A DNA stretch of 63,997 nt, filler included, from an uncultured bacterium (GTDB taxonomy: Bacteria > CAYJOG01): the NCBI GenBank assembly GCA_964371695.1. It is 7 parts of 7 records of this genome, joined end to end, with 100 filler letters (N's around TTAATTAATTAA, not from the genome) between each part and the next. Parts side by side here need not be neighbours in the genome. Positions count along the whole stretch, not along the records: positions 1 to 9,870 come from CAYJOG010000065.1; 6 more parts are not named here. The stretch is one strand, 5' to 3'. Positions 78 to 61,699 of this stretch are shown here, in pieces. Numbering within the stretch: the stretch's first letter is position 1; each line of letters opens with the position of its first letter. The position numbers and the translations under genes were made by a program. The notes under the pieces were generated by a model. The model saw nothing but the letters and a program-made list of their open reading frames with translations. It had not been told where the DNA came from and made no database searches.

Positions 78-665
78 TCAGACCGGCGTGACGCTGATGC
101 GTGGGTCCAGGCGCTCGCGCATGAGGTTTTCGATATACATGAGTGTACCGGAGATGGAGCTGGGACAGGAGCCACAGGCCCCCTGATACAGAATCTTGAG
201 CTGAAAGCCCTCCAGGTCCACCACTTCCAGGCCGCCGCCGTCGCCCGCGAGCGCCGGGCGGATCTCCATGTCCAGAATGCCTTCGATGGACTTCACCTGA
301 TCCACCACGTTCATGTCGGCCCAGGGGCCGGTGGCCTGGGGGCCTTCGGCGGCGGGGGTGGCGGGGGCGACTTCGGCTTTTTCGTAGTGCTCTTCAATCA
401 GGGGTTTGACGGTGTTGATCAGCAGGTCCCAGCCCAGTTCGCCGTCCTGCGTGATGGTGATGAAGCGGTCCATCATGAACACTTCGGTGACATGGGGGAT
501 GTTGAGCAGATAAGCCGCCAGCCGGTTGTCGCCCGTTTCATCGGGGCTTGAAAAAGTCAGCGTGCCCCGCGACACCACCTGCTCGCTCAGGTTGAACTTG
601 AGGGCGTTTGGGTTGGGGGTGTACTCGGTGCTGAGAACCTTTGCTTGGGTGGCGGTGGTGTCCAC
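78..665 (-). CDS. NifU/Nfu-type Fe-S cluster carrier (Nfu_N plus NifU-C domains)
   Basis: N-terminal TPNPNALKF motif; C-terminal IRPALAGDGG...GACGSCPSS. Start placed at GTG 665 behind GAAGGAG. Confidence 0.9.
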   Translation of the reverse strand: MDTTATQAKVLSTEYTPNPNALKFNLSEQVVSRGTLTFSSPDETGDNRLAAYLLNIPHVTEVFMMDRFITITQDGELGWDLLINTVKPLIEEHYEKAEVAPATPAAEGPQATGPWADMNVVDQVKSIEGILDMEIRPALAGDGGGLEVVDLEGFQLKILYQGACGSCPSSISGTLMYIENLMRERLDPRISVTPV

Positions 666-907
666 GGCGGCTCCTTCAAACCAGCACAAATCAGCGGCTG
701 GTGTCGCCAAGATTATCCCGGCTGGCAATTTTCACAAGCACCGGGCAAAAATTGACGGTGTGACGGAGCGGGGCGTCCGAAAGCCTGTTGGCCTCGCAAC
801 CACTGGTTCATCTGTTTTGAAATGAGTAGCAGCGACATCCCCATTGCTGCTATATGGGTGCGGTGGGGACACCGCACCTACTCCTCATTTTTAACCAGAC
901 GAACCCA

Positions 908-3900
908 CTACGGATCTACGGTGAAGTTCACGGCGTTGCCGGTGATGCTCCCCACCGTGACGGAAATGGAGCCGGACAGCGCCCCGGTGGGCACGTTCAG
1001 CGTGAGGCTGTTTTGTGTGGCCGCCGTGGGCGTGACGTTGCCCGCGCCGGGAAAGGTGACGGTGTTGCTGGCGGGGGTGGTGCTGAAAGCGCCGCCGGTG
1101 ATGACGATTTGCGCCCCCACCTGGGCATTGGGCGGGGCGATGCTGAGAATGGTGGGTTTCACCACCATGGGCCAGCCGTTGGACGTGTAACCGTTGCGCG
1201 TGACCGTGACATTGCCCGACGTGGCCCCCGTGGGAATCACCACCTCGATTTTGGTTTGTGTGCTGGAACTGAGGGTGACGGGCAGCGTGCCGATTTTGGT
1301 GGTGTTGTCAGTCATGGTAGTGCTGAAACCACTGCCGTTGATCTCCATGCGTTCGCCGATCAGAAACGCGCTGGTGGAAACCGACAGCAGCGAGAGGCTG
1401 GAAATGGCCGGGATGGCCTGGAAGTAGGACGGATTGGATTGCAGGCCCGACGTGATGACATAAATCGGGCCGTTGTCGGCCCCCACGGGCACCTGCACGT
1501 TGAGCGTGGTGACCGAGCCGGAGTTGACCGTGGCCAGGGGCCCCGTCAGGGGGTCCAGAAAACGCACCACGTTGTTGCCCGGCACGGGGTCGAAACTGCT
1601 GCCGGTGATGGCCACGTTGTCCCCCACCCTGGCTGCGCCGGGGGCCACGCTGTTGATCACCGGGCGCACGGTGAAGGGAATGCTGTTGCTGGCGTTGCCG
1701 TTGGTGGTGACCACCAGGGTGGTGGCCCCGGCGGTGAGGCCCATGGGCACCTCGGCGGTGAGTGTGCTGAAATCGGCGCTGAGCACCGTGCCGGGCACAC
1801 CGCCAAAGGTGATGCTGTTGTTGCCGGTGGCGCCGTCAAAGCCGTTGCCGATCACCTGAATGATTTCGCCGCCCCCTGCCGTGGAAGGCTGCGAGGTACT
1901 CAGCGTCACCATCATCTGGAACATCACGGCGTTGGTCACCAAGCCCCCCACCGTCACGGTCACGGGCGAGGTCTCTACGTTATAAGGCACAATGCAGGTG
2001 AGTTGTGTGGTGCTGGCGGTTTGGGTGGCCACGGTGGTGTTGTTGAACTTGATGATATTGCTGGCGGGCGTGGTGCTGAAGCCCTTTCCGTTGATGGTGA
2101 GGGTGATGCCCGCGCCCCCGGATGGCGGACTGAGGTTGGTGATGCGAGGCAGGATGGTGAAGGGAATTTCGTTGGAGGAAATTACGTTTTTGGTGAGGAC
2201 ACTGATGGAAAGCGGCCCCGTGGCGGGCACGGCGGGCACGTTCAGGCCCAGGTGGGTATTGCTGGAACTGATCACCGTGGCGTTGGTGAGGCCGAACCGC
2301 ACGATGTTTTCAGACGCAATGGGGCTGAAACCCGTGCCATAGACCTGCATGGTGGCCCCCACGTTGCCCTCGCTGATGGTGAGGCTGGTGAGCTTGGGGG
2401 TGATGTTGTAACTCACGGTGAGGCTGGTCTGGCCGTTCACCGTCACCGACACAGGCCCCGCCACGGCGTTGGCCGGTACCGACACGGTGAGGTCGGTGGA
2501 GCCGCTCACGGCGGTGGCGGTGGTGTTGACCGTGCCGCTGAAGGTGATGGTGTTGCTGGCGGGGTTGCCGTCAAAACCCAGACCGCTGATGACGATGGCG
2601 TCTCCTATGTTGGCGCTGGCGGGCGTGATGCTGCTGATGACGGGGGCCACACTCACCAGAAAGGCGCCGCTGGAAATGTTGCTGGTGCTCACCACCAGCG
2701 GATACGACCCCGGCCCACTCACCATGGACGAAGGAATATCCACCCCCAGGGCGGTGGCGGTGGCCGAGGCGATGTTCAGCAGCACACCCCCCAATGACAC
2801 CTGATTGTCCGCCGGTGTTTTTCCAAAGCCCTCACCCACCACCACGATGGTCTGGCCCAGGCCCGCCACCGAGGGATTGATGCTGCTGATGACGGGGGTG
2901 ATGGTGAGCTTGAGCGGATCGCTTGTGCCGCTGGCCCCCTGATAGTTGGTGGTGACGGTGACGTCTCCGGTAGAAGCCCCGGTGGGCACACGAAACACCA
3001 GAGAGGTGAACGTGCTGCTGCTCAGGCCAGCGGCCTGGCCATCCACCATCACCCCCATGTTGTTGAAATCGTTGCTGAACCCCTGGCCGTTCAGCGTCAC
3101 CTGTTGCCCCACGGTGGCGGGGTTGACGCTGAAGCCGGTGATGGTGGGCTTGATGCTGAAACTGCCGGTGACCGAGACGAACTCCGGGTAATAACCAGCG
3201 GGCGTGGGCACATAAAGACTGAAGGTGTAAGGCCCGGAATGCGCNNNNNNNNNNGAGAAACTGATATTGATGGCGTTGGCGGCGGGCGACGTGTCATAAC
3301 CAATGCCCGCCTGAAAATAACTGATGCCGTTGACCGTAAAGGACATCTGGCCCGGCACGGCCGTGTTGAGTCCGCTGGCATAGATTCCGGCGGTGCCGCC
3401 GGGGTTCATCGTGCCGGTGCTGGACTCCATGCGGCCAATGCCCACCACCGGCCAGAACGTGTTGCTGGAACTGGTGGGGCTGACATTGTTGCCCACCTGA
3501 GTCACGCCACTGAGGCCAAAAACGCTGTCGAACGTGCTGACCTGGATGTTGCGGATGGTGCCGTTCAGGTTGGCGTCCATGCCCGGCGGCGCGGTGACGG
3601 TGAGCGTGGAGGTGGTGGCGCTGGTGGGCGCCACCGGGGTTTTGTTGAACCACACCGTGTTGTCCGCCGCCGTGGGGGCAAAGCCGTTGCCGGTCACCGT
3701 CACCGTGGTGCCCGCCTGCACCACCGGCCGGGAGGGCAGGAGTGTGACGCTGTCGGTGTAGTTGCCTGTCACGGACGTCACCACCGGCCCGGCGGTGAAG
3801 GTGCCCGCGTTTTCCTGGCTGATGAGGCCGCCCGTGCCCCCGGTGCGCACATAAATCTGCCCCCGGCTGAAACCGGCTGGGGCCAGCGTGGAAATCTGCA

Positions 3901-6508
3901 GGCTGGTCATGGCGGTGATGGTTCCGATCAGCGCCTGGCCTGCAAAACACTGGGCCCCTGTGGCCCCCGCGTTGGCGAAACACACCTGGGTGTCGCCCGG
4001 CTCAAACCCGCTGCCCAGAATGGTGAGGGGGCTTTCGGCAGGCCCCTGGGCCGGGGTAATGGTGGCGACAAAGGGGGTGACGCTGAAGGTATAGGGCGGG
4101 CTGAAGGCCCCCAGGGAACCGCCGTTGCGTATCTGAATGTAACCTGTGTAGGCCCCCAGGGGAATGCTCAACGACAACGTGGTGGAGGTGGACGCACTGA
4201 AGGCCACCTCGTTGCTGTTGAAGAACACCTCCGCATCGCTGGAAAGCGCGCCAAAACCCGTGCCATACAACATGAGCGGCTCACCCACCACCCCCACGGT
4301 GATGCTGCTGGAAGTGATGATGGGCTGCACCTGCACAAACAGTCCGTCGCTCTGGTAGCCCGTGCCCCCCACACTCACTTTCACCAGACTGGAGGTGGCG
4401 TCGGACGGCACCCTGGTGGTGATTTCCGTCTGGTTCAGCACCGCGTCGCCCGAAAGCGGGTTGAGCTGCACAGTCAGGGCCGTGCCCCAATGGATGGCGT
4501 TGTCGGTGACAAAATTGCTGAACCCGACACCCCGGATGGTGATGGTGTCCCCCGCCCGCGCCAGACGCGGAAAAATGCTGGTGATGGTGGGTTTGACCGA
4601 CACCAGGAACTGATTGGTGCTGACCCCGTTCACCATGAAGGACAGATAACCGGAGTTGATGCCGTTGGGCACCATCACTTCCAGGATATCCACACCGGCG
4701 CTCTGGCTCAGGCTCACCTTGAAAAGCTGAATCTGCCCCAGATAAATGTTGCTGATGTCCCCCAGGTTCGAGCCAAACCGTTTGCCATAAATAAAGAAGT
4801 TCTGGCCCCCCACCGGCTTGCTGGGCGACACGCTGGTGATGGACGGGCCAATGGAATAGGACAACGTAGCCGAGGCGCTCACCCCCGCCACCGCCAGGGA
4901 GATCACGTCGTCTTCCACACCAAAGGGCACCGTCACCGTGAGGCTGGTGGGCGTGGCGGCGGTGACCGAAGCCGAAGACGTGGAGAAAAACACGGCGTTT
5001 TGTGTGGGGGTGGCGCTGAAACCGGTGCCCGTGAGGGTCACGGTCTGATCCCACACCAGTGTGCCGCTGGGTGAAATCGCATCCAGCGTGGGCAGCACGG
5101 TGAAGGTGGGCGTGGCCGAAGCCGTGAGCGCCCCCAGCGCCACGGTGAGCGCCCCCGTCACCACCCCCGGTGGCACCACGGCGGCAATCTGGGTGAGACT
5201 GGCGCTGAGCACCGTCACCGGCAGGCCACCGATGTTCACAAACAGGTTGTTGGGGTCGGTGTCGAAGTTGGAGCCGTCGATGGTGATGGCTGTGTTCACC
5301 GAGCCGCTGGTGGGTGAGAGGTTGTTCACCACCGGCAGCACACTGGTAACGGTGTAGGCCACCGGCGCGCTGTTCTGGGCGTTCACCGATACGGTGAGGG
5401 TCTGCGCGCCTGCGGCCACCGTGGCGGGGGTGCGCACGGTGAGTTGCGTGAGGCTGGCGCTCAGCACCGTGGCCGGGAGGCCCCCCAGCAGCACCTGATT
5501 TTCACTCAGGGTGGCCGAGAACTCCGCCCCGTCTATCACCAGAATGGTGCCGGGGTTGCCGCTCAGAGGGGCTATCTGGCTGATGACCGGCGGCCCGGCG
5601 CTGGCCACGCAACAGCCTGGGTCTTCACCGCTTGTGAGCACCACAAAAGCAGCGCCTTCGCTGGTCTGCCCGCCGCTGGTGAGTTTGACCTCACCACTGC
5701 TGGCTCCTGCGGGCACAATGAACACCACGTTGCTCAGGGTGGCCTGTTGCACCGCCAGGGGCACACCTCCCAGGGTCAACACGGCGTCCGCCGGGTCAAA
5801 CCCGGTGGCGGCCACGCTCACCACTTCGCCCACGTGGGCGGCGGCGGGGTTGAGCGCGGTGATGACCGGGCTGTCCTGTGCTGGCCCGGCGGTGGGTGTG
5901 GCAAAGGAAAAAATCAGCTTGGTATTTTCGCGGGCAAAAAACCAATATCCCTTGAAAGGATTCAGCTTGGCCCCCGCCGTGCCCGGCAAAACCTGATTCA
6001 CCTGACCAGCGGTCACGCCAAAAGCCGTGGGCAGCACCCAGGCCGAGGCGGCGCTGAGGGGCAGGATGTTGCTGTCCGGCCCCTGCACGTTCACGTTGTC
6101 ACCCCAGGCCACCGCCTGGGGATAGGGGTTGGCGATGAGGTTCCAGCCCCGGGCCAGTTGCACTTCGATCACCTGGGCGGTCTGGGTGAGGTTGCCCCCC
6201 ACCGTCAGTTGAGAGACCCCAGGCCCCGGCAACACCCACAGGCCCTGGCCCGGCAACACGGCCGAGCCGCTCGTCACCGGCGTGGCCAGACCTTTATAGG
6301 TATAAGCCTCCACACCACCGGGCATGGTCACGCCACTGGCGGGCAAACCCACCAGCGACCAGCCTCCCTGATCGTTCGTCAACGGCACGGTGAAACCCGC
6401 CTGGGCAGACCGCAGACACAGCAGGCTCAGCAGACAAAGCCACACCGCCCAGACACGACAAGACACACGCACGACAGGCTTAAGTATACCCCTTTCAGGG
6501 CACTGCAT
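908..6508 (-). CDS. Giant secreted IPT/TIG (Ig-like) repeat protein, about 1,860 aa
   Basis: Signal peptide ending ..LLCLRSAQA; N-terminal GWSLVGLP/GWNLIANPY/KGYWF module; about 19 repeats of P-(V/T)-I-(T/S)-S-x-x-P...G-x-x-F. A 10-N gap lies at 3245-3254. Start is ATG 6508 or GTG 6472; the ORF-track start at 6748 lies inside hxsA. Confidence 0.85.
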   Translation of the reverse strand: MQCPERGILKPVVRVSCRVWAVWLCLLSLLCLRSAQAGFTVPLTNDQGGWSLVGLPASGVTMPGGVEAYTYKGLATPVTSGSAVLPGQGLWVLPGPGVSQLTVGGNLTQTAQVIEVQLARGWNLIANPYPQAVAWGDNVNVQGPDSNILPLSAASAWVLPTAFGVTAGQVNQVLPGTAGAKLNPFKGYWFFARENTKLIFSFATPTAGPAQDSPVITALNPAAAHVGEVVSVAATGFDPADAVLTLGGVPLAVQQATLSNVVFIVPAGASSGEVKLTSGGQTSEGAAFVVLTSGEDPGCCVASAGPPVISQIAPLSGNPGTILVIDGAEFSATLSENQVLLGGLPATVLSASLTQLTVRTPATVAAGAQTLTVSVNAQNSAPVAYTVTSVLPVVNNLSPTSGSVNTAITIDGSNFDTDPNNLFVNIGGLPVTVLSASLTQIAAVVPPGVVTGALTVALGALTASATPTFTVLPTLDAISPSGTLVWDQTVTLTGTGFSATPTQNAVFFSTSSASVTAATPTSLTVTVPFGVEDDVISLAVAGVSASATLSYSIGPSITSVSPSKPVGGQNFFIYGKRFGSNLGDISNIYLGQIQLFKVSLSQSAGVDILEVMVPNGINSGYLSFMVNGVSTNQFLVSVKPTITSIFPRLARAGDTITIRGVGFSNFVTDNAIHWGTALTVQLNPLSGDAVLNQTEITTRVPSDATSSLVKVSVGGTGYQSDGLFVQVQPIITSSSITVGVVGEPLMLYGTGFGALSSDAEVFFNSNEVAFSASTSTTLSLSIPLGAYTGYIQIRNGGSLGAFSPPYTFSVTPFVATITPAQGPAESPLTILGSGFEPGDTQVCFANAGATGAQCFAGQALIGTITAMTSLQISTLAPAGFSRGQIYVRTGGTGGLISQENAGTFTAGPVVTSVTGNYTDSVTLLPSRPVVQAGTTVTVTGNGFAPTAADNTVWFNKTPVAPTSATTSTLTVTAPPGMDANLNGTIRNIQVSTFDSVFGLSGVTQVGNNVSPTSSSNTFWPVVGIGRMESSTGTMNPGGTAGIYASGLNTAVPGQMSFTVNGISYFQAGIGYDTSPAANAINISFXXXXAHSGPYTFSLYVPTPAGYYPEFVSVTGSFSIKPTITGFSVNPATVGQQVTLNGQGFSNDFNNMGVMVDGQAAGLSSSTFTSLVFRVPTGASTGDVTVTTNYQGASGTSDPLKLTITPVISSINPSVAGLGQTIVVVGEGFGKTPADNQVSLGGVLLNIASATATALGVDIPSSMVSGPGSYPLVVSTSNISSGAFLVSVAPVISSITPASANIGDAIVISGLGFDGNPASNTITFSGTVNTTATAVSGSTDLTVSVPANAVAGPVSVTVNGQTSLTVSYNITPKLTSLTISEGNVGATMQVYGTGFSPIASENIVRFGLTNATVISSSNTHLGLNVPAVPATGPLSISVLTKNVISSNEIPFTILPRITNLSPPSGGAGITLTINGKGFSTTPASNIIKFNNTTVATQTASTTQLTCIVPYNVETSPVTVTVGGLVTNAVMFQMMVTLSTSQPSTAGGGEIIQVIGNGFDGATGNNSITFGGVPGTVLSADFSTLTAEVPMGLTAGATTLVVTTNGNASNSIPFTVRPVINSVAPGAARVGDNVAITGSSFDPVPGNNVVRFLDPLTGPLATVNSGSVTTLNVQVPVGADNGPIYVITSGLQSNPSYFQAIPAISSLSLLSVSTSAFLIGERMEINGSGFSTTMTDNTTKIGTLPVTLSSSTQTKIEVVIPTGATSGNVTVTRNGYTSNGWPMVVKPTILSIAPPNAQVGAQIVITGGAFSTTPASNTVTFPGAGNVTPTAATQNSLTLNVPTGALSGSISVTVGSITGNAVNFTVDP

Positions 6509-6608
6509 AACCTGCGGAGCAAAGCTGTCCACCGCAATTTGTTTTAATTCGTAATGCTCGTGATGCTCGGCAAATCCAGTCCCATGCCTTGAAACCGTCC
6601 GCCCCGCC

Positions 6609-6983
6609 TCACCAACTGCCGTGGCTGCCGTGGCTGCCGTGCGATCCGTGGCTGCCGTGGCTGCCGTGGCTGGCGTGACTGCCGTGACTGGCATGGCTGC
6701 CGTGGCTGCCGTGAGAGCAGTGGCTGCCGTGGCTGGCGTGGCTGGCATGGCTGCCGGGGTCCAGGTTCATGAACTCCAGGCCGTCGCCCTCGGGGTGAAT
6801 CAGTGGATTGGCCCCCGAAAGGGTGCTGCCGATGATCAGCAGCGTGGTGGCGCCGGTCAGGGATTGTTCGCGGGTCATTTTGCCTTCCTCGGACTGCAAA
6901 AACATGCCCACCTTTTTTTTCATGGCGGGAACCCGGCTTTTCAAGCCCTTTTTACCGTTTTTCTTGCCGTTTCCCTCGCTCAT
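6609..6983 (-). CDS. hxsA: His-Xaa-Ser repeat precursor peptide (HxsA-type), 124 aa
   Basis: ATG 6983 follows AAAAGGGG. Lys-rich leader, hydrophobic segment, then 15 tandem H-x-S triplets and a terminal W. Lies directly downstream of hxsB. Confidence 0.9.
   Translation of the reverse strand: MSEGNGKKNGKKGLKSRVPAMKKKVGMFLQSEEGKMTREQSLTGATTLLIIGSTLSGANPLIHPEGDGLEFMNLDPGSHASHASHGSHCSHGSHGSHASHGSHASHGSHGSHGSHGSHGSHGSW
6615..6749 (-). repeat. 15 x 9-nt coding tandem repeat (10 HGS, 4 HAS, 1 HCS)
   Basis: GCTGCCGTG-type units counted directly (135 nt). Synonymous variation between units keeps His and Ser fixed. Confidence 0.95.
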
Positions 6984-7020
6984 GGTTGTTCCCCTTTTGC
7001 TGTGGTGAATCACCCCGGCC

Positions 7021-8529
7021 CTATGGGCCGCAGGCGCTTTTTTCGTAGGCATAGTGGTCGAAGTTGTCCTTAATGGTAATCCATCGTTCAAAAACCCTCA
7101 AGATTTGTTCTCTTTTCTCTCCCATCAGGTGCAGGAACAGCGGGTCGAGCATGCCCAGGCTGGTGCGGCACTTGGCGCTGGTACTCATCTGGCCAAACAA
7201 ATCGCCCTGGGCGGTGTAGTTGTAAATGGGGCACACGCCACAATAAGGCTTGTAGGCGCAGTCCTTGCAGCCGGGGATGAAATCCTGCGTGCTCGCCAGC
7301 AGCATGGCCTTGACGGTGTCGTGACGCACGATGTCCCGGTAACCCGAGCGGGACACGTGGCCCAGCTCGAAATTGTCGTCACCCTGCTCCTTCAGCATGC
7401 GGCCTTCGTCGCAGGTGAACACCCCGCCGTCGTGGTTATAACCCACCTGACCGATGCCCGCGCCGCAGGGACTGCGCAGTTCCATGTAATTCGGGTCCCG
7501 GTCGGAAAGGATTTTCTGAAGGTGCAGGGCGGCGGCGCGCTCCATGATTTCCACGCCCTTCAGGTTCAGCTCGATGATGTAATTCAGCGCGTTCTGGTAA
7601 AACTCGATGAACTGCTCGGACGTGTAACCAATCAGCCGGGCTGTTTTCTGCGACCAGCCATAGGGGTTGAGCGCGCGCAGGTGAATCACCTTCAGCCCCA
7701 GGCCCACATAGGTGTCCACGATTTCCTTCCAATAGGGCAGGCTGTGGCGCGTGGTGGTCATGAGCGCGTCCACGTGGTAATAGTCTTCGGGCAGACCCCG
7801 GCGGCGATATTCCGCGTTGATCATGGCCATTTTGGCGGTGACCTCTTCAAAACTGTTGCCCGCGCTGTGATAGGCCCGGTTGCGGTTGTGAACCTCCGGG
7901 GGGCCGTCCAGGCTGGTGCAGAGCATCACGCCGTTGTCGATGAAAAAGTTCATTTTTTCTTCGTCCAGCAGCGTGAGGTTGCTCACCAGGGTAAAAGCCA
8001 GGTGCTTTTTGGCCTCTTTGTTTTTTTCGGTGGCGTATTCGGTGATGAACCTGATGATGGGGAAGTTCACCAGCGGCTCGCCCCCCTGAAACTCAATATT
8101 GATGGCCGGACTGGTGGTCTTGAAAATCAGGTCCACCGTCTGGCGGGCGGTTTCTTCGGTCATGTCGGTGTCCACGCGGTCCATGTTGGCGCGGCTGGCG
8201 TGGCAATAAGAACAGGCATGGTTGCAGCGCAGGGTGACGGTGACGATGTGCAGGTTCGGCCCACTGCTGAGAAACCAGTTGCGGTTGCGGTATTTGGTGA
8301 TGGCCCGGGTGGTGGCGGGGTCGTTGCGCAGAAAACCAGCCTCCAGCAGGGAATGAAACATGGGCAGGTCCTGCGTCATGCGGCCCTCGACAAACGCCTG
8401 GAACTCTGCGGGCGAAAGCGCGATGAAATCCCCCACGTCGTTGGTGATCAGCACCTTGCCGCCCAGGTGACGAAACCTGAAAAAGCCCAGGCGAGGGGCG
8501 TTTTCGCGCACCAGGGCCAGGTTCACCAT
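7021..8529 (-). CDS. hxsB: His-Xaa-Ser system radical SAM/SPASM maturase HxsB
   Basis: TLRCNHACSYCHAS (CxxxCxxC); IEFQGGEP; SPCGAGIGQ..Y..DG..FTCDEGRM; CKDCAYKPYCGVCP SPASM cysteines; N-terminal FRF..LITNDVG. Confidence 0.92.
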   Translation of the reverse strand: MVNLALVRENAPRLGFFRFRHLGGKVLITNDVGDFIALSPAEFQAFVEGRMTQDLPMFHSLLEAGFLRNDPATTRAITKYRNRNWFLSSGPNLHIVTVTLRCNHACSYCHASRANMDRVDTDMTEETARQTVDLIFKTTSPAINIEFQGGEPLVNFPIIRFITEYATEKNKEAKKHLAFTLVSNLTLLDEEKMNFFIDNGVMLCTSLDGPPEVHNRNRAYHSAGNSFEEVTAKMAMINAEYRRRGLPEDYYHVDALMTTTRHSLPYWKEIVDTYVGLGLKVIHLRALNPYGWSQKTARLIGYTSEQFIEFYQNALNYIIELNLKGVEIMERAAALHLQKILSDRDPNYMELRSPCGAGIGQVGYNHDGGVFTCDEGRMLKEQGDDNFELGHVSRSGYRDIVRHDTVKAMLLASTQDFIPGCKDCAYKPYCGVCPIYNYTAQGDLFGQMSTSAKCRTSLGMLDPLFLHLMGEKREQILRVFERWITIKDNFDHYAYEKSACGP

Positions 8530-8756
8530 TGCTTTTTTTCCTCCAGGGTGAAATAAAGCGCGGCGTTGAAAAGCTCGTCCGTCAGTTCACCGGACAGTTC
8601 CGGGTCGTGGGGCTTGCCGGTCACCAGCAGACCGCCAGAGGTTTTCTCCACGGTCAGGGCGGCGTCTTCCGAAAAACTTTTGGCAGCTTTTTTCACCGCC
8701 TTGGCGCTGTAAAGGCGACGGGGAAACTCAAGCCGGAGGGCTGTTTCAGCCGTCAC
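8523..8756 (-). CDS. Small HxsD-like protein
   Basis: 77 aa with LYSAKAVKKAA...ELFNAAL, resembling the N-terminal half of HxsD. Overlaps both neighbours, suggesting translational coupling. Confidence 0.7.
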   Translation of the reverse strand: MTAETALRLEFPRRLYSAKAVKKAAKSFSEDAALTVEKTSGGLLVTGKPHDPELSGELTDELFNAALYFTLEEKKQW

Positions 8757-9210
8757 TGGCGACCTCCCCGGCGGCGGCCTTGACCTCGCCGTATTTTTCT
8801 TCCCACGGCGTGGCGATGCCTAGGGGGTCATCAATCAGGTCATCGTTTTCTTCCTGGCCCAGCAGGTCCATGAAGTCTTCCTGCTGGTCATCGGCGCTGA
8901 AAAGCGCCTTGGCCACGATGTATTCCCGCAGCTTTTGGTTGCTCTTGCTCACCTCGGTGCGAATGGCCTGGTTCACCAGTTCGTTCAAAAACAGGCCCGC
9001 CAGGTGCTCCATGGCCTTTTCGCCGGTTTCTTCCTGGGGTTTGAGCAGCACCCGCACGGCCTTTTTATCGCCTTCTTCCAGCCGCAGATAGGCGCGGTCC
9101 AGAAACACAAAGGCTGCGCCATAGACGGTTTCAAGGGGATAGAGCTTTGCCGGGAGTTCCACCACCACAAAGCCATTTTGGTGAGTAAAAAAAGAGGTTG
9201 GGTCAGTCAT
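8746..9210 (-). CDS. hxsD: His-Xaa-Ser system protein HxsD
   Basis: LYPLETVYGAAFVFLDRAY, FLNELVNQAIR, LREYIVAKAL, and acidic tail DDPLGIATPWEEKYG; sits in the hxs operon. Confidence 0.82.
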   Translation of the reverse strand: MTDPTSFFTHQNGFVVVELPAKLYPLETVYGAAFVFLDRAYLRLEEGDKKAVRVLLKPQEETGEKAMEHLAGLFLNELVNQAIRTEVSKSNQKLREYIVAKALFSADDQQEDFMDLLGQEENDDLIDDPLGIATPWEEKYGEVKAAAGEVASDG

Positions 9211-9337
9211 GAGGTGCTTTCTCGTTGCGATTGGAGCGATTTGGGGAGTATACCCACCGCCCCCTTCCAGCTAACAAAAGCCCAAAAGCCGCAGCCTTTC
9301 CGGTCAAAAACATCCCGGAAAGGTTCACAATGGCCCC

Positions 9338-9870
9338 ATGGCCAATTCACCGCAGCCGCCAGGAAAAGCCTCCGACGTTCTGGTGCGCCTGTTTTTGGTG
9401 CTGCTGCTGTCGCTTGGCGTCATCCGGTTTTTTCAGCGCCAGACCACCCCTCCCCCAAAGCACACAGCCCTGGTCTGCGGCCTGCTCAAACGACACAACA
9501 CACTGCCCCTTTTTGGCGGCGCGGGCCACCTGCACCGTCTGCCCCAGCCTGTGGCCTGGAAAGCCGCGCCGGAGTTGGCCAAAGACGCCCTGGCCGTGAC
9601 CAGACACATTCACCGCGCCACGGGCATCCGTTTCAAACCATGGCCCGACCAAGCCCCCCTGCCCCGCCACGGCATATTTTTCACCTTTGGCCAAGCCAGA
9701 AACGCCGATGGTTCACCGGGCTGCGGTCAGGCGGTGGACTTTCAGAAAAGGGGCCTGACGCGGCTGGTGGTTCCGGCCCGACCTGTCAAAACCTGCCCTG
9801 CGCGGCGACTCATCCTGTTGCACGAACCATTCACGCCCTGGGTTTTGCCGGCCACATCGCGGGTAACTCC
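9338..9870 (+). CDS. Membrane-anchored metzincin-like metallopeptidase, 3'-truncated, with apparent 1-nt frameshift near 9826
   Basis: N-terminal TM segment. LILLHE in one frame continues as TIHALGFAGH in another; adding one A to CACGAACCATTCAC gives HETIHALGFAGH. Confidence 0.55.
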
Positions 9871-9970
9871 NNNNNNNNNNNNNNNNNNNNNNNNNNNNNN
9901 NNNNNNNNNNNNNNTTAATTAATTAANNNNNNNNNNNNNNNNNNNNNNNNNNNNNNNNNNNNNNNNNNNN
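9871..9970. other. Artificial scaffold spacer; also at 19764-19863, 29515-29614, 39220-39319, 48866-48965 and 58469-58568
   Basis: Identical N44-TTAATTAATTAA-N44 linkers with stops in all frames. Internal scaffold lengths fall steadily (9793, 9651, 9605, 9546, 9503), as in a size-sorted concatenation. Confidence 0.98.
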
Positions 9971-9971
9971 G

Positions 9972-10127
9972 CGGGGCGGCCACACCACCGTGGTGGAACT
10001 GCTGGTGCTACACGGCGCACCCCTGTGGCAGACCGGCCAGGGGGGCCTCACGCCCCAGTCCCTGGCCACCCGCCTGGGCAAAAGCCAACTGGCGGATTGG
10101 CTCAGACGCAAGGCCCAGGGGCGTTAA
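9972..10127 (+). CDS. 3' end of an ankyrin-repeat protein (5'-truncated)
   Basis: Manual translation RGGHTTVVELLVLHGA...GGLTPQSLATRLG...* matches the ankyrin consensus. Confidence 0.65.
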   Translation, partial: RGGHTTVVELLVLHGAPLWQTGQGGLTPQSLATRLGKSQLADWLRRKAQGR

Positions 10128-10960
10128 ACAATCTTCTCCGCTTCCATGTCCCGTCGGTTCTGCACCACGGCCAAGCGATAGTTTTTACCCGGCCAGAACG
10201 AAAAGGCGATGGCCCTCAAAAAATCCATGGGAATGGCCACCGTGGTGCCCGTGGCGGCGGGTTTACCGCCGGTGGGGCGCGTCATGGTGCGAAACACCCA
10301 GTCCCACAACGTGAGAAATCCGCCAAAGTTGGTGTCGCGTTGTTTCAGGTCGGTGCTGTGGTGCCAGTGGTGATATTCCGGCGTCACCACCACCCATTTC
10401 AGCGGCCCCCATTTCAGCCGCAGGTTGCTGTGGGTGAAGTCTCCCAGCAGAAACCAGCCAAAGGGAACCACGGTGACCGCCCCCAGTGGAAACCCCAGCC
10501 AGAGGAGCGGCGCAATCTGGGCGGTGCGCAGAAACACCAGTTCCAGCGGATGCACCCGCGTGGCAGCCAGCCAGTCCACGCGGGGGCTGGAATGATGCAC
10601 GGCGTGCAGCGGCCACAACCATTTGGTGTGCAACGCCCGGTGCGCCCAGTAATCAAAAAACGTGGCGCTCAAAAAAGCCAGGGCCGCTGAAGCCCCCACC
10701 GGCAAGGCCGCCAGAGCCTGCCGCACCGGCGGCGGCCCCAGGGGCGCGAGGCCGCCGTGCAGCAGCTTCACCCACCAGGTCACCTCCACAAACAACAACC
10801 CCCAGGCCATGAAAAAAAACGCCACGTCGCTTTGCCACCAGCGGCGGAACACGCCCCGCCAGGGCCAAGCCCCGAAGCGTTTTTCCAGCGGCACAAACAC
10901 CAGCGCCATGACGCAAAAAATAAAAAGCGGATTAAAAAAGATGGGCGGCGGCGGCCCCAT
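10124..10960 (-). CDS. Sterol desaturase / fatty acid hydroxylase family protein
   Basis: His boxes YWAHRALH, LHAVHHS, FTHSN and HHWHHS; membrane segments. Confidence 0.9.
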   Translation of the reverse strand: MGPPPPIFFNPLFIFCVMALVFVPLEKRFGAWPWRGVFRRWWQSDVAFFFMAWGLLFVEVTWWVKLLHGGLAPLGPPPVRQALAALPVGASAALAFLSATFFDYWAHRALHTKWLWPLHAVHHSSPRVDWLAATRVHPLELVFLRTAQIAPLLWLGFPLGAVTVVPFGWFLLGDFTHSNLRLKWGPLKWVVVTPEYHHWHHSTDLKQRDTNFGGFLTLWDWVFRTMTRPTGGKPAATGTTVAIPMDFLRAIAFSFWPGKNYRLAVVQNRRDMEAEKIV

Positions 10961-13672: not shown

Positions 13673-14025
13673 TCAGATTTTCAGCTCGGCTTTCAGTTTG
13701 TCCAGCACCTCGGGGTTGTTGCCCGCCAGATAACGCATCAGGCGGCGGCGCTGCCCCACCATCCGGAGCAGGCCCCGGCGGCTGGAGTGGTGGTTTTTTT
13801 TGAGCTTCAGGTGGTCGTTGTTGTCGGGGTTGCGGTGGGGGGGGATGGGGATCTGCACNNNNNNNNNNAGACGACGGTCGTCTCGGCCACGGCCCGCAGG
13901 CGCTCGTTGATGTCGCGGATGCGCTGGGTGAGCATGGCGATCTGCACTTCAGCCGATCCGTTGTCACCCGGCTTTTGCTGCCAAGTGGTGATGATTTCGC
14001 GTTTCTTCTCTTTAAGAAGAGCCAT
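13673..14025 (-). CDS. rpsO: 30S ribosomal protein S15 (broken by the assembly gap at 13859-13868)
   Basis: GSAEVQIAMLTQRI and HSSRRGLLRMVGQRRRLMRYL; AGGAGG RBS; upstream of pnp. Confidence 0.95.
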
Positions 14026-19605: not shown

Positions 19606-20083
19606 GCGCCGCACTCTTTGCTGTTGGATTTATGGATTACAGGGATTTTTCAACGTAGCCCCGGCGTCTCGCCGGGAGTGTCAACCGCGCCGGAGGCGCG
19701 CACCTTTTTGTATTTTTTTCTTATTACCCCGAAAAACATCTGTTTTTTGCCGCCTGCGGCGGTNNNNNNNNNNNNNNNNNNNNNNNNNNNNNNNNNNNNN
19801 NNNNNNNTTAATTAATTAANNNNNNNNNNNNNNNNNNNNNNNNNNNNNNNNNNNNNNNNNNNNGCCTTTGCTCGGCCAGATGCCCCAATGGGCATCTGGA
19901 AAGAACCCTCGCAAACTCGTGGATTTTTCAGGGTGTTTATCAACACCCTTTAGTATCCGAAGTCCCCCACCTGGTTTATCCCGGCCTTGAAAAATGCCGT
20001 TATGCGGCATGGCCCACCTGCTGGGCCACCTTTGCTCAAAACAATGTCTTGGTTTTATGCCATTTTGACCATAAAATCAGCTC

Positions 20084-25538: not shown

Positions 25539-26615
25539 GTGCCGGAGCTTGCCAGCACTTGGCCGGGGCGGTTGCGCCAAGCGGTGGTTTATGCCGCCGC
25601 CCGCCCCCTGTTGCGGGTATCGGTGGCCACCGGCCGGGCGCTGCTGCGCCCCACCTCGGTGGCGTTTTATCTCGGCCCCCGCTGCAACCTCACCTGCCGC
25701 CACTGTGGTTATTACGGAGACGGCCCGCCGGTGAGTTTTGAAGACTACGCCCGCGTGCTGGATGAGACCTGGCGGCTGGGGGCGCGGGAGCTCACCCTCA
25801 CCGGCGGCGAGCCCACGCTGGTGCGCGACTTTCCCCGTTATCTGGGCCACGCCATCAGCGCCGGATGGATCGTCGGCTTCACCACCAACGGCACCACACT
25901 GCGGGGCCCGCTGGTGGCGGACCTGCTGAAGACCGGCGTGCAGCGGGTGAGCATTTCGCTGGACGGCATGGAACAGGCCCACGACGCCGTGCGCGGCGAG
26001 GGGGTTTTCCGGCGCGCCATGGAAGGAGTGGAAAACATGCTGGCTGCCCGCAGCACCCATCCGTGCCTGGAACTGCGGGTGAACATGGTGCTGCTGCGGC
26101 ACAACCTGCCCGACGTGCTGGCCCTGCACGACTGGTGCGCCAGCCGCCGGGTGTGGTTCAACGTCATGCCCTACACCAGCGAAAACCTGGCCTATCACCA
26201 GCAGGAAGTGGGGCAGGATTTTGCGCCGGACGACGCCGCCCGCCAGCAACTCGCCGGGCTGATGCCCCAATGGCTCAGGGCCAGGCGGCGAAAAGGTTAT
26301 TGGCTCAACACGGCGCGGCACCTCAAGGAAATTCACCACTTTGTGAGCACCGGCCAGCGGCGGGGCCAATGTCTGGTGGGGGCCTATCAGTTCAACGTGG
26401 ATGAAAAACTGCGGGTGGGATTCTGCACCGAGGCCATCGGCGTGATTGGCGACCTGACACAACAAAACGCCGAGGAAATCTGGCACAGCCCCCAGGCCGC
26501 CGCTGCCCGGCAAAAAACAGGCCGCTGCCACGACTGTGTGCTGAACTGCTATTACAGCCCCTCACTGGCCGAAGGCGCGTTTGACCTACTGCCCGTGCTG
26601 CTCAAGAGCAGGTGA
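25539..26615 (+). CDS. Radical SAM protein with Twitch/SPASM-like C-terminus
   Basis: CNLTCRHC, LTGGEP, TTNGT, ISLDG; C-terminal C..G.....C...IGDL..EIW...CHDCVLNC. Confidence 0.88.
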   Translation: MPELASTWPGRLRQAVVYAAARPLLRVSVATGRALLRPTSVAFYLGPRCNLTCRHCGYYGDGPPVSFEDYARVLDETWRLGARELTLTGGEPTLVRDFPRYLGHAISAGWIVGFTTNGTTLRGPLVADLLKTGVQRVSISLDGMEQAHDAVRGEGVFRRAMEGVENMLAARSTHPCLELRVNMVLLRHNLPDVLALHDWCASRRVWFNVMPYTSENLAYHQQEVGQDFAPDDAARQQLAGLMPQWLRARRRKGYWLNTARHLKEIHHFVSTGQRRGQCLVGAYQFNVDEKLRVGFCTEAIGVIGDLTQQNAEEIWHSPQAAAARQKTGRCHDCVLNCYYSPSLAEGAFDLLPVLLKSR

Positions 26616-61410: not shown

Positions 61411-61483
61411 GAGCCGTTAGCTCAGGTGGTAGAGCATCTGACTTTTAATCAGAGGGTCCTTGGTTCGAGCCCAAGACGGCTCA
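61411..61483 (+). tRNA. tRNA-Lys(TTT)
   Basis: Acceptor stem GAGCCGT/ACGGCTC, anticodon loop CTTTTAA, GGTTCGAG T-arm; CCA not encoded. Confidence 0.95.
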
Positions 61484-61540
61484 CCCTTACAAACACCGAG
61501 GAGGAAACTGTATAATTCAAACTTGAAAAATCAGTCTTAT

Positions 61541-61613
61541 GCCCCCATCGTCTAGAGGCCTAGGACATCGCCCTTTCACGGCGAAGACAGGGATTCGAAT
61601 TCCCTTGGGGGTA
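61541..61613 (+). tRNA. tRNA-Glu(TTC)
   Basis: Acceptor stem GCCCCCA/TGGGGGT, anticodon loop CTTTCAC, ATTCGAAT T-arm. Confidence 0.95.
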
Positions 61614-61623
61614 CGCACCAATT

Positions 61624-61699
61624 GGGGCGTTAGTGTAGCGGTTAACATGCTGCCCTGTCACGGCAGAGACCACGGGTTCAAATCCCGTACGCCCCGCCA
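61624..61699 (+). tRNA. tRNA-Asp(GTC)
   Basis: Acceptor stem GGGGCGT/ACGCCCC, anticodon loop CTGTCAC, encoded CCA. Confidence 0.96.

Follow-up and report, generated by a model that had tools for sequence, protein, structure and literature searches.

When the gene for a giant secreted protein lies directly behind a small peptide-modifying operon, on the same strand, does the protein belong to the operon's function or is it a bystander? The question is raised by positions 908 to 9210 of a 63,997-nucleotide (nt) stretch of DNA from an uncultured bacterium (assembly GCA_964371695.1), the whole of which we call the window. Here a cassette of the His-Xaa-Ser (Hxs) family, built around the radical S-adenosylmethionine (SAM) enzyme HxsB, is followed by the gene for a protein of IPT/TIG repeats, a kind of immunoglobulin (Ig)-like repeat. 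The reading that we put forward tentatively, at just short of an even chance, takes 6609-9210 as a lean, single-enzyme type-4 cassette of hxsD, hxsD-like, hxsB and hxsA4, with the giant IPT/TIG protein as its envelope partner. The features concerned are the following.

8746-9210, minus strand: hxsD, 154 amino acids (aa); TIGR03976, 54.6 bits (cut-off 50)
8523-8756, minus strand: hxsD-like, 77 aa; NF038315, 39.6 bits (cut-off 41), E 4.5e-10
7021-8529, minus strand: hxsB, 502 aa; TIGR03978, 533.3 bits (cut-off 370), E 4.8e-160
6609-6983, minus strand: hxsA (HxsA4 type), 124 aa; NF038313, 60.8 bits (cut-off 55)
6615-6749, minus strand: array of 15 H-x-S repeats, presumed target of HxsB, read off the translation
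6509-6608, minus strand: spacer of 100 nt between hxsA and the IPT/TIG gene, with an AT-rich stretch; no U-tailed terminator in a terminator scan
about 6398-6508, minus strand: signal peptide of the IPT/TIG protein, read off the sequence
908-6508, minus strand: giant IPT/TIG gene, 1,866 aa from the ATG at 6508; Pfam TIG, 369.4 bits

Reading of the open reading frames (ORFs) together with the family models bears out the layout proposed by an earlier, sequence-only reading: an Hxs-type radical SAM peptide-maturation operon, recognised by TIGRFAM/NCBIfam model search, and five genes at these places on one strand, with hxsD and hxsD-like overlapping by 11 nt, hxsD-like and hxsB by 7 nt, and gaps of 37 nt from hxsB to hxsA and of 100 nt from hxsA to the IPT/TIG gene. 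The four cassette genes may be read as one translationally coupled unit. The claim that no U-tailed terminator separates the genes likewise stands: a terminator scan of 500-10200 returned 17 sites against 11 ± 4 expected, and none of them falls in 6509-6608; on the minus strand the closest candidate (6459-6439, 3 G-C pairs) is located within the IPT/TIG coding region. The RNA of 6470-6640 folds at -62.6 kcal/mol (z -2.09), with a hairpin past the stop codon that lacks a U run. No sigma-70-like promoter was found in 500-10200, a weak guide for a phylum as unfamiliar as the host's.

Subtype and gene content of the cassette

By its family matches the cassette is of the HxsA4 (type-4) subtype and not the canonical four-gene system. 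Of the canonical features, HxsB and HxsD are present, and HxsC (TIGR03977) and a TIGR03979-type HxsA are absent from the cassette; TIGR03979 finds no match in the window HxsA at E <= 0.01, and the NF038313 match spans its residues 18-124. The sequence-only reading had described the Hxs system as defined by comparative genomics. That picture is outdated, as the canonical system has now been given an experimental antiphage role. The available text of a 2026 study reports that the HxsD-HxsB-HxsC-HxsA system of Escherichia coli stops phage DNA entry, that all four genes, hxsC included, are required, that HxsA is processed and acts in the periplasm as a retained protein, and that HxsC binds HxsD in a pull-down (PMC13128918).

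With the HXS systems of E. coli and Klebsiella the window shares homologous HxsB and HxsD, a tandem His-Xaa-Ser substrate, and the binding of HxsD to a radical SAM enzyme, to HxsC by pull-down there (PMC13128918) and to HxsB by prediction here. It differs in having no HxsC and an additional HxsD-like protein, and in a gene order of D-D'-B-A versus D-B-C-A. The substrates are also unlike each other: window HxsA4 has 124 aa, 15 repeats, no basic residues in its array and no peptidoglycan-binding domain, whereas E. coli HxsA is reported to carry 5 basic repeats plus a peptidoglycan-binding domain (PMC13128918), and the TIGR03979 type is about 190 aa long. Finally, the window's host is not a proteobacterium, whereas 99.7% of canonical systems are reported from Pseudomonadota, and 99.6% with the order D-B-C-A (PMC13128918).

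The closer relatives of the cassette come from a scan of one genome per species, which gave 97 stretches with an HxsB relative, 80 of them kept (41-51% identical, mostly metagenome-assembled genomes of Myxococcota). To these were added 12 wider loci around the best Myxococcota matches and 7 loci of a second phylum (L143-L149). Thirty short loci with about 1.5 kb of flank each (L081-L110) were excluded from the neighbourhood counts, and 12 of those genomes, re-taken with wider flanks, supply the 12 wider loci. All neighbour counts derive from family-based searches of every stop-to-stop ORF. Greedy longest-ORF calling on these G+C-rich loci had produced gene clusters c0 and c9, which we discarded as antisense artefacts; a third cluster, c8, with a Pfam match in none of its 3 representatives, may be another. 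HxsB relatives turn up in 143 of 401 genomes sampled from the phylum of G001 and in 7 of 401 from that of G002. The host itself is probably of another phylum than these relatives, Myxococcota included, since the polynucleotide phosphorylase (PNPase) of the window is only 46-49% identical to those of five genomes of the relatives' phyla.

The type-4 set (HxsA4 NF038313, HxsD_rel NF038315, HxsC4 NF038332; L001-L122) resembles the window in the HxsA4 leader and array, in the order HxsD, HxsD-like, HxsB, and in an HxsB that is 41-56% identical. The window HxsA consists of a Lys-rich N-terminus, a conserved leader (VPAMKKKVGMFLQSEEG), a spacer and the HxS array, in which 15 consecutive H-x-S units with x = G, A or one C lead to the C-terminus GSW. 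The same leader, HxS array and C-terminal G[QS]W recur in the ORFs directly behind hxsB at 59 of 80 related loci, so that the design of the family may be written as a leader resembling LPxLxKKPxDFLQxxE, then a spacer, HCSH(GSH)n and, last, G[QS]W. The number of HxS repeats ranges from 6 to 58 among relatives, in the manner of a length-variable repeat, and a single conserved Cys, that of HCSH, is present in almost every HxsA4 peptide. Pfam gives the window HxsA only a weak collagen-repeat match (Pfam Collagen, E 2.8e-4). Arrays of (Gly-Ser-His)n in general match collagen-repeat models weakly, with SclB-type adhesin models matched for L027.

Where the window departs from its type-4 relatives is in what accompanies this core: it is without their PapB-like and HxsC-like genes, the Tat-signal protein and the lipoproteins F1 and BIG described below, and has the IPT/TIG giant 3' instead. 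Among the 80 loci, an HxS-repeat ORF lies directly after hxsB in 59, HxsD homologues occur in 62, HxsC-like genes in 59-60 and a PapB-like radical SAM gene in 50; in these 50, as in L111-L113, it is the PapB-like gene that fills the slot just after hxsA. One or more extra radical SAM genes accompany each of the 44 loci in which HxsA is present and the sequence reaches at least 3 kb downstream; they lie within 4 kb downstream in 39 of these and upstream in the other 5. In the window cassette hxsB is the sole radical SAM gene, and the cassette is the leanest type-4 form among the loci seen. When the HxsC-like and PapB-like proteins of the relatives were searched against the window by tblastn, they matched only hxsB and 25539-26615. 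The latter, a radical SAM/SPASM gene on the plus strand, was considered as a displaced HxsC and rejected, as the 25 families listed for it include neither HxsC nor HxsC4. It encodes 358 aa with a CNLTCRHC motif, lies between alr and purD, 16 kb away from the cassette and on the opposite strand, and has generic best NCBIfam matches (archaeal MoaA at 77.5 bits, NirJ, AhbD).

Two further features of the relatives concern the proteins around HxsB. Directly before hxsD, 54 of 92 related loci (e.g., L079:8826-9326 and L061:8745-9275) encode a protein of about 166 aa with a twin-arginine translocation (Tat) signal, which is absent in the window; it has conserved His and Cys positions and no Pfam domain beyond the Tat signal, and its modelled fold, with a predicted local distance difference test (pLDDT) score of 85.4, finds no PDB match better than E 0.48. 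Eighteen of the 92 loci (e.g., L008, L016, L025 and L030) hold an HxsB paralogue with no recognisable HxsA or HxsD. Several of these HxsB-only loci lie near Ser/Thr-kinase-like genes, and 16 of the 18 form a separate group on the HxsB tree.

HxsB, its small partners and the modification

HxsB carries the Pfam domains Radical_SAM, Fer4_12 and SPASM, with an N-terminal domain of about 95 aa ahead of the radical SAM core. The solved structure nearest to it in sequence is 5wgg (E 1.6e-20), which we take to be the SCIFF maturase CteB. Against the models of other families it scores 139.9 bits for PapB, 117 for the SCIFF maturase, 63.8 for YhhB (cut-off 445) and 55 for AmcB (cut-off 425), and thus falls by model score outside the known cyclophane-synthase families. 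The thioether-forming SPASM maturases (PapB, the SCIFF maturase and QhpD) are therefore its nearest counterparts outside the Hxs family, in their scores, in the solved relative and in having an N-terminal domain before the core. They are unlike it in that HxsB stays far under each family cut-off and in that HxsA4 offers one conserved Cys only.

The other obvious comparison is with the triceptide maturases, which form three-residue cyclophanes. Synthases of this type that act on His motifs, HtkB and HaaB, are described in the available text of PMC11499958; they resemble the present case in pairing a radical SAM/SPASM enzyme with a short repeated motif that starts with His (PMC11499958). Unlike them, HxsB is low on the YhhB model, and the only Hxs modification mapped, as reported for canonical HxsA, is a gain of 8 Da on one SHRSS motif, not a loss of 2 Da (PMC13128918). 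The chemistry suggested by the sequence-only reading, up to 15 His-to-Ser crosslinks at -2 Da each, is by these comparisons not favoured, because PapB and SCIFF score above YhhB, the nearest structure is 5wgg, the Cys is conserved, and the change in E. coli is +8 Da (PMC13128918). A separate His-Xaa-Ser precursor is served by radical SAM enzymes unrelated to HxsB and HxsC according to the available text of PMC9062424, in which HxsB is only named as an earlier annotated cluster.

HxsD is small and acidic. In its AlphaFold2 model (mean pLDDT 79.8) the core, residues 8-105, is well folded, and the acidic tail is disordered; a fold search of the PDB gave nothing better than E 0.02, with generic alpha/beta sandwiches only, and a sequence search for solved relatives gave none (best E 0.14). 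We considered HxsD as a peptide-binding domain of the RiPP recognition element (RRE) type, a RiPP being a peptide made by the ribosome and modified after translation, and set this aside, as no such domain is recognisable from the modelled fold. Predicted docking of HxsB with HxsD scored 0.83, and 3 controls at best 0.00. Among solved complexes 58 of 80 attain the mark, among mismatched pairs 2 of 110, a calibration that is rough here, our own alignments being used. Partner pLDDT was at least 65 and the runs (0.83, 0.10 and 0.83) agreed in at least 0% of contacts. The predicted interface joins HxsB residues 2-87 and 419-455 to HxsD residues 31-38 and 79-103, the long helix of HxsD (79-103) resting on the pre-core domain of HxsB (2-87) and on part of its SPASM region. 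As HxsD has no solved relative, the docking pass is not likely to be the memory of a solved complex.

The HxsD-like protein is probably a short paralogue of HxsD, to judge from its alignments. It reaches TIGR03976 at E 0.0062 and HxsD itself, in a profile-profile comparison, at E 8e-4 (probability 24%, 72 columns), and its full-length alignment with 20 homologues shows 5 invariant columns. Taken together, HxsD would hold HxsB by the N-terminal domain of the enzyme, perhaps jointly with HxsD-like, and HxsB would recognise the leader of HxsA4 and modify the HxS array in the cytoplasm. For the study of this chemistry the window offers the smallest gene set: a single enzyme with two small partner proteins and one substrate.

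The giant IPT/TIG protein and its possible link to the cassette

The protein encoded behind hxsA begins with a Sec-type, signal-peptide-like h-region ending in AQA, continues with an N-terminal domain of about 260 aa that has no Pfam family, and then consists of TIG repeats in 15 stretches (Pfam TIG, PF01833, above gathering score) that run to the C-terminus; it also matches the NCBIfam choice-of-anchor Z repeat at 136.8 bits, and no C-terminal anchor is recognisable. With a His content of 0.2% and no HxS motif, it is not likely to be a substrate itself. Among 5.8 billion proteins, none of similar length covers more than 47% of its residues 1-330, bar a 100%-identical copy. Language-model look-alikes of the N-terminal domain (best cluster 0.86, 149 shared features) are TIG proteins, most commonly of the phylum Chloroflexota, a lead only that is not used as evidence here.

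The junction between hxsA and the IPT/TIG gene is bridged by a contig of a second sequencing run, X2, perhaps the source sample or a sibling, which covers 5532-6679 with 3 letters different; the junction is therefore not an artefact of this assembly record alone. A 10-base N run at 3245-3254 falls within the IPT/TIG gene, and the frame is open across it. Both cassette and IPT/TIG gene are also present in a relative about 90% identical in DNA, from a run of a second study, the only other holder found; its contigs cover 3300-6190, 6257-6461 and 6609-9240 at depths of 9.1, 6.5 and 9.8 and leave the junction unbridged. The specific link between this cassette and this giant is confined to the lineage.

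What reaches beyond the lineage is a looser pattern. Of the 92 loci, 74 were counted as cassettes by the presence of HxsA or HxsD, and 21 of the 74 have a gene for a large Ig-like lipoprotein directly 5' on the same strand. These belong to two families. F1, a lipoprotein of 1,625-1,858 aa, is encoded at 6 of the 7 loci that form the nearest HxsB clade (L111-L117, 51-56% identity), 69-141 nt upstream of hxsD-like/hxsB on the same strand, and is made up of the Ig-like domains ASH, HYDIN/VesB and DUF1573 plus MopE-type motifs. Each genome offers 10-40 matches to the F1 of L112, and in 5 of 5 the best full-length match is the copy beside hxsB (itself in G035, orthologues of 43-49% identity in three others, and one of about 35%, in two pieces, in G023). 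BIG, a PKD/Big lipoprotein some 770 aa long, takes the directly 5' position in 15 further loci, its gene ending at or overlapping the start of the Tat-signal gene that precedes hxsD. In a quick maximum-likelihood tree of 93 HxsB rows the window groups with the F1 clade plus L121 (SH-aLRT 90, below the mark of 95), on a long branch of 0.56.

The 7 loci of the second phylum add a different arrangement, in which Ig-like domains may be part of the substrate. Their order is HxsA-HxsD-HxsB-HxsC (e.g., L149:11030-12199 and L145:7868-8905), and their HxsA is larger: a signal or membrane segment precedes 6-12 basic HxS repeats, which a Pro-rich linker joins to a beta-rich domain at the C-terminus. This last domain is unassigned and bears a W-E-T-S motif in L144-L147, and in L149 the HxS repeats are fused to three Big_9/cadherin-like Ig domains.

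Set side by side, these cases suggest, by analogy, a rule in which the HxS array works extracytoplasmically, on or beside an envelope-binding or Ig-like scaffold. The scaffold would be a fused domain in some lineages (peptidoglycan-binding in E. coli, Ig/cadherin-like in L149) and a separate lipoprotein in others (F1 and BIG in Myxococcota). By the same analogy, the His-rich product of the window would act outside the cytoplasm as matured E. coli HxsA does, a placement that we favour because E. coli HxsA is reported to be periplasmic (PMC13128918) and because a Tat-signal protein precedes hxsD in 54 of 92 loci. The secreted IPT/TIG protein may then be the envelope partner or scaffold of matured HxsA4, which we regard as roughly a toss-up. 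The proposal of the sequence-only reading that the HxS product works with the giant protein thus survives as a general idea, through the Ig-like lipoproteins 5' of 21 of 74 cassettes and the fusion in L149; its expectation that the IPT/TIG gene itself would be kept at homologous loci does not, as set out next.

The rival that survives best, of real weight if distinctly short of even, holds that the cassette is autonomous and the IPT/TIG protein an unrelated surface-protein neighbour, its gene driven by a separate promoter in the spacer and brought to this place by chance or by a rearrangement that removed the downstream radical SAM genes. An IPT/TIG homologue was found in none of 99 related loci (blastp and phmmer on 80; blastp on 12 and 7), and in relatives the slot after hxsA goes to a PapB-like radical SAM gene and not to one for a surface protein. 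The low His content of the protein, the want of HxS motifs and an N-terminal domain that has no relatives of similar length fit this account as well, as do the housekeeping genes that flank the locus (nfu, pnp and panCD). Giant genes are, moreover, frequent in the relatives: an ORF of at least 1,500 aa occurs in 5 of 20 random 20-kb regions of three Myxococcota genomes, and we estimate that roughly 3% of operons there would have a giant immediate neighbour. The 100-nt AT-rich spacer could indeed house a promoter for the IPT/TIG gene.

Further points weigh against the envelope-partner reading as we have framed it. A large Ig-like gene directly 5' is missing from 53 of the 74 cassettes; the IPT/TIG gene lies 3' of its cassette, F1 and BIG 5'; the IPT/TIG protein shows no sequence likeness to F1 or BIG (best E 0.078), and its signal peptide is plain, not of the lipoprotein type. 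F1 and BIG were chosen as families after inspection of the loci, and each amounts to about one evolutionary event, conserved within one clade. Of the 6 loci with F1, only 3 yielded an HxsA4 ORF; in L114-L117 no HxS-repeat ORF was found between hxsB and the PapB-like gene, and F1 is kept in 3 of the 4. As to the cassette, the extra radical SAM genes of all 44 informative relatives are missing from it, one of the three HxsB-HxsD complex runs scored only 0.10, and the gene set may not be sufficient, as E. coli is reported to need all four genes (PMC13128918).

Several observations speak against an unrelated neighbour in turn. The IPT/TIG gene lies on the strand of the cassette with no terminator between, both are kept at like depth in the relative of the second study, and large Ig-like lipoproteins recur 5' of related cassettes, in a synteny that persists at 43-49% protein identity. 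The window HxsB groups with the F1-bearing clade, and in L149 a natural HxS-Ig fusion exists. Weighing the support from F1, BIG and L149 against the limits of neighbourhood evidence, we hold a functional link between cassette and IPT/TIG protein to be close to an even call, and give coincidence a sizeable chance that stays below even. A wider version of the envelope-partner reading, in which scaffold tethering is general to Hxs products and the window is a non-orthologous swap (IPT/TIG for F1) combined with the smallest working set, one radical SAM enzyme and two HxsD paralogues, is a possibility that we consider rather unlikely. Were this scaffold-swap version true, giant surface proteins built of Ig repeats would, in several phyla, serve to display peptides modified by radical SAM enzymes, with a role in phage exclusion or metal handling. 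Were the link due to chance, the locus would still be a useful minimal member of a catalogued family, and nothing more.

Other accounts, function and surroundings

A free, diffusible RiPP, either an antibiotic or a metal-scavenging peptide, whose leader is cut and which is exported by unlinked host functions, the IPT/TIG protein being irrelevant, is an improbable account of the locus. The leader-plus-core layout and the SPASM maturase are typical of RiPP pathways, and the His-rich core could chelate metals. Yet the earlier observation that no transporter is encoded is upheld both in 908-9210 and among the annotated neighbours (Nfu/NifU, fatty-acid hydroxylase, PNPase, PanC/PanD); the locus holds no protease either, and neither a protease nor a transporter was recognised among the conserved neighbours in the 92 related loci. 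The only studied Hxs product is, moreover, reported to be a retained periplasmic protein (PMC13128918), and other HxsA variants are fused to envelope-type domains.

Very improbable is the view that the locus has decayed from a fuller type-4 system through loss of the second radical SAM enzyme and no longer yields a product. The extra radical SAM genes of 44 of 44 informative loci, none of them in the window cassette, and the reported need of E. coli HXS for HxsC (PMC13128918) lend this view some colour. Against it stand four intact reading frames with coupled starts and stops and a sign of purifying selection on the cassette, indicated by an HxsB that is 96% identical in protein to P0001 (assigned to the relative's contig by inference, both being 2,728 nt long) where that contig differs over 6609-9240 by 210 letters and 9 gaps, about 92% identity in DNA.

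As to what the module does, a phage-entry barrier, by analogy with E. coli, is conceivable but doubtful, and we would say much the same of metal binding or handling; the remainder of the odds falls to some other role. The Hxs family has been newly tied to phage defence through a radical-SAM-matured periplasmic effector, in work that the available text limits to the proteobacterial D-B-C-A form (PMC13128918). A literature search, largely at title and abstract level, returned no account of the HxsA4 type, of a single-enzyme form or of a link to Ig-like proteins; the experimental Hxs work that it found consists of PMC13128918 and a preprint, which in their available text treat the canonical form only. 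The sequence-only reading had supposed the combination at this locus to be undescribed. This is right for the pairing with Ig-like proteins, of which the search found no description, and does not hold for the cassette, whose subtype is already modelled in NCBIfam. The recurring pairing of Hxs cassettes with Ig-like envelope proteins, a candidate link, is, as far as that search shows, undescribed.

The surroundings of the locus supply some minor observations. About 180 nt 3' of the IPT/TIG gene, on the same strand, lies a gene for an Nfu/NifU-type iron-sulfur (Fe-S) scaffold (78-728, minus strand; Pfam Nfu_N and NifU). The window contains 17 N runs, e.g., 3245-3254, 9871-9970, 13859-13868 and 19764-19863, of several kinds: runs of 44 bases come in pairs at intervals of about 9.7 kb, those of 10 bases stand singly, and there is one of 100 bases. 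Two N runs just 5' of hxsD mask part of the likely promoter region. Toward the far end, at 61411-61699 on the plus strand, three tRNA genes (Lys-TTT, Glu-TTC and Asp-GTC) form a cluster.

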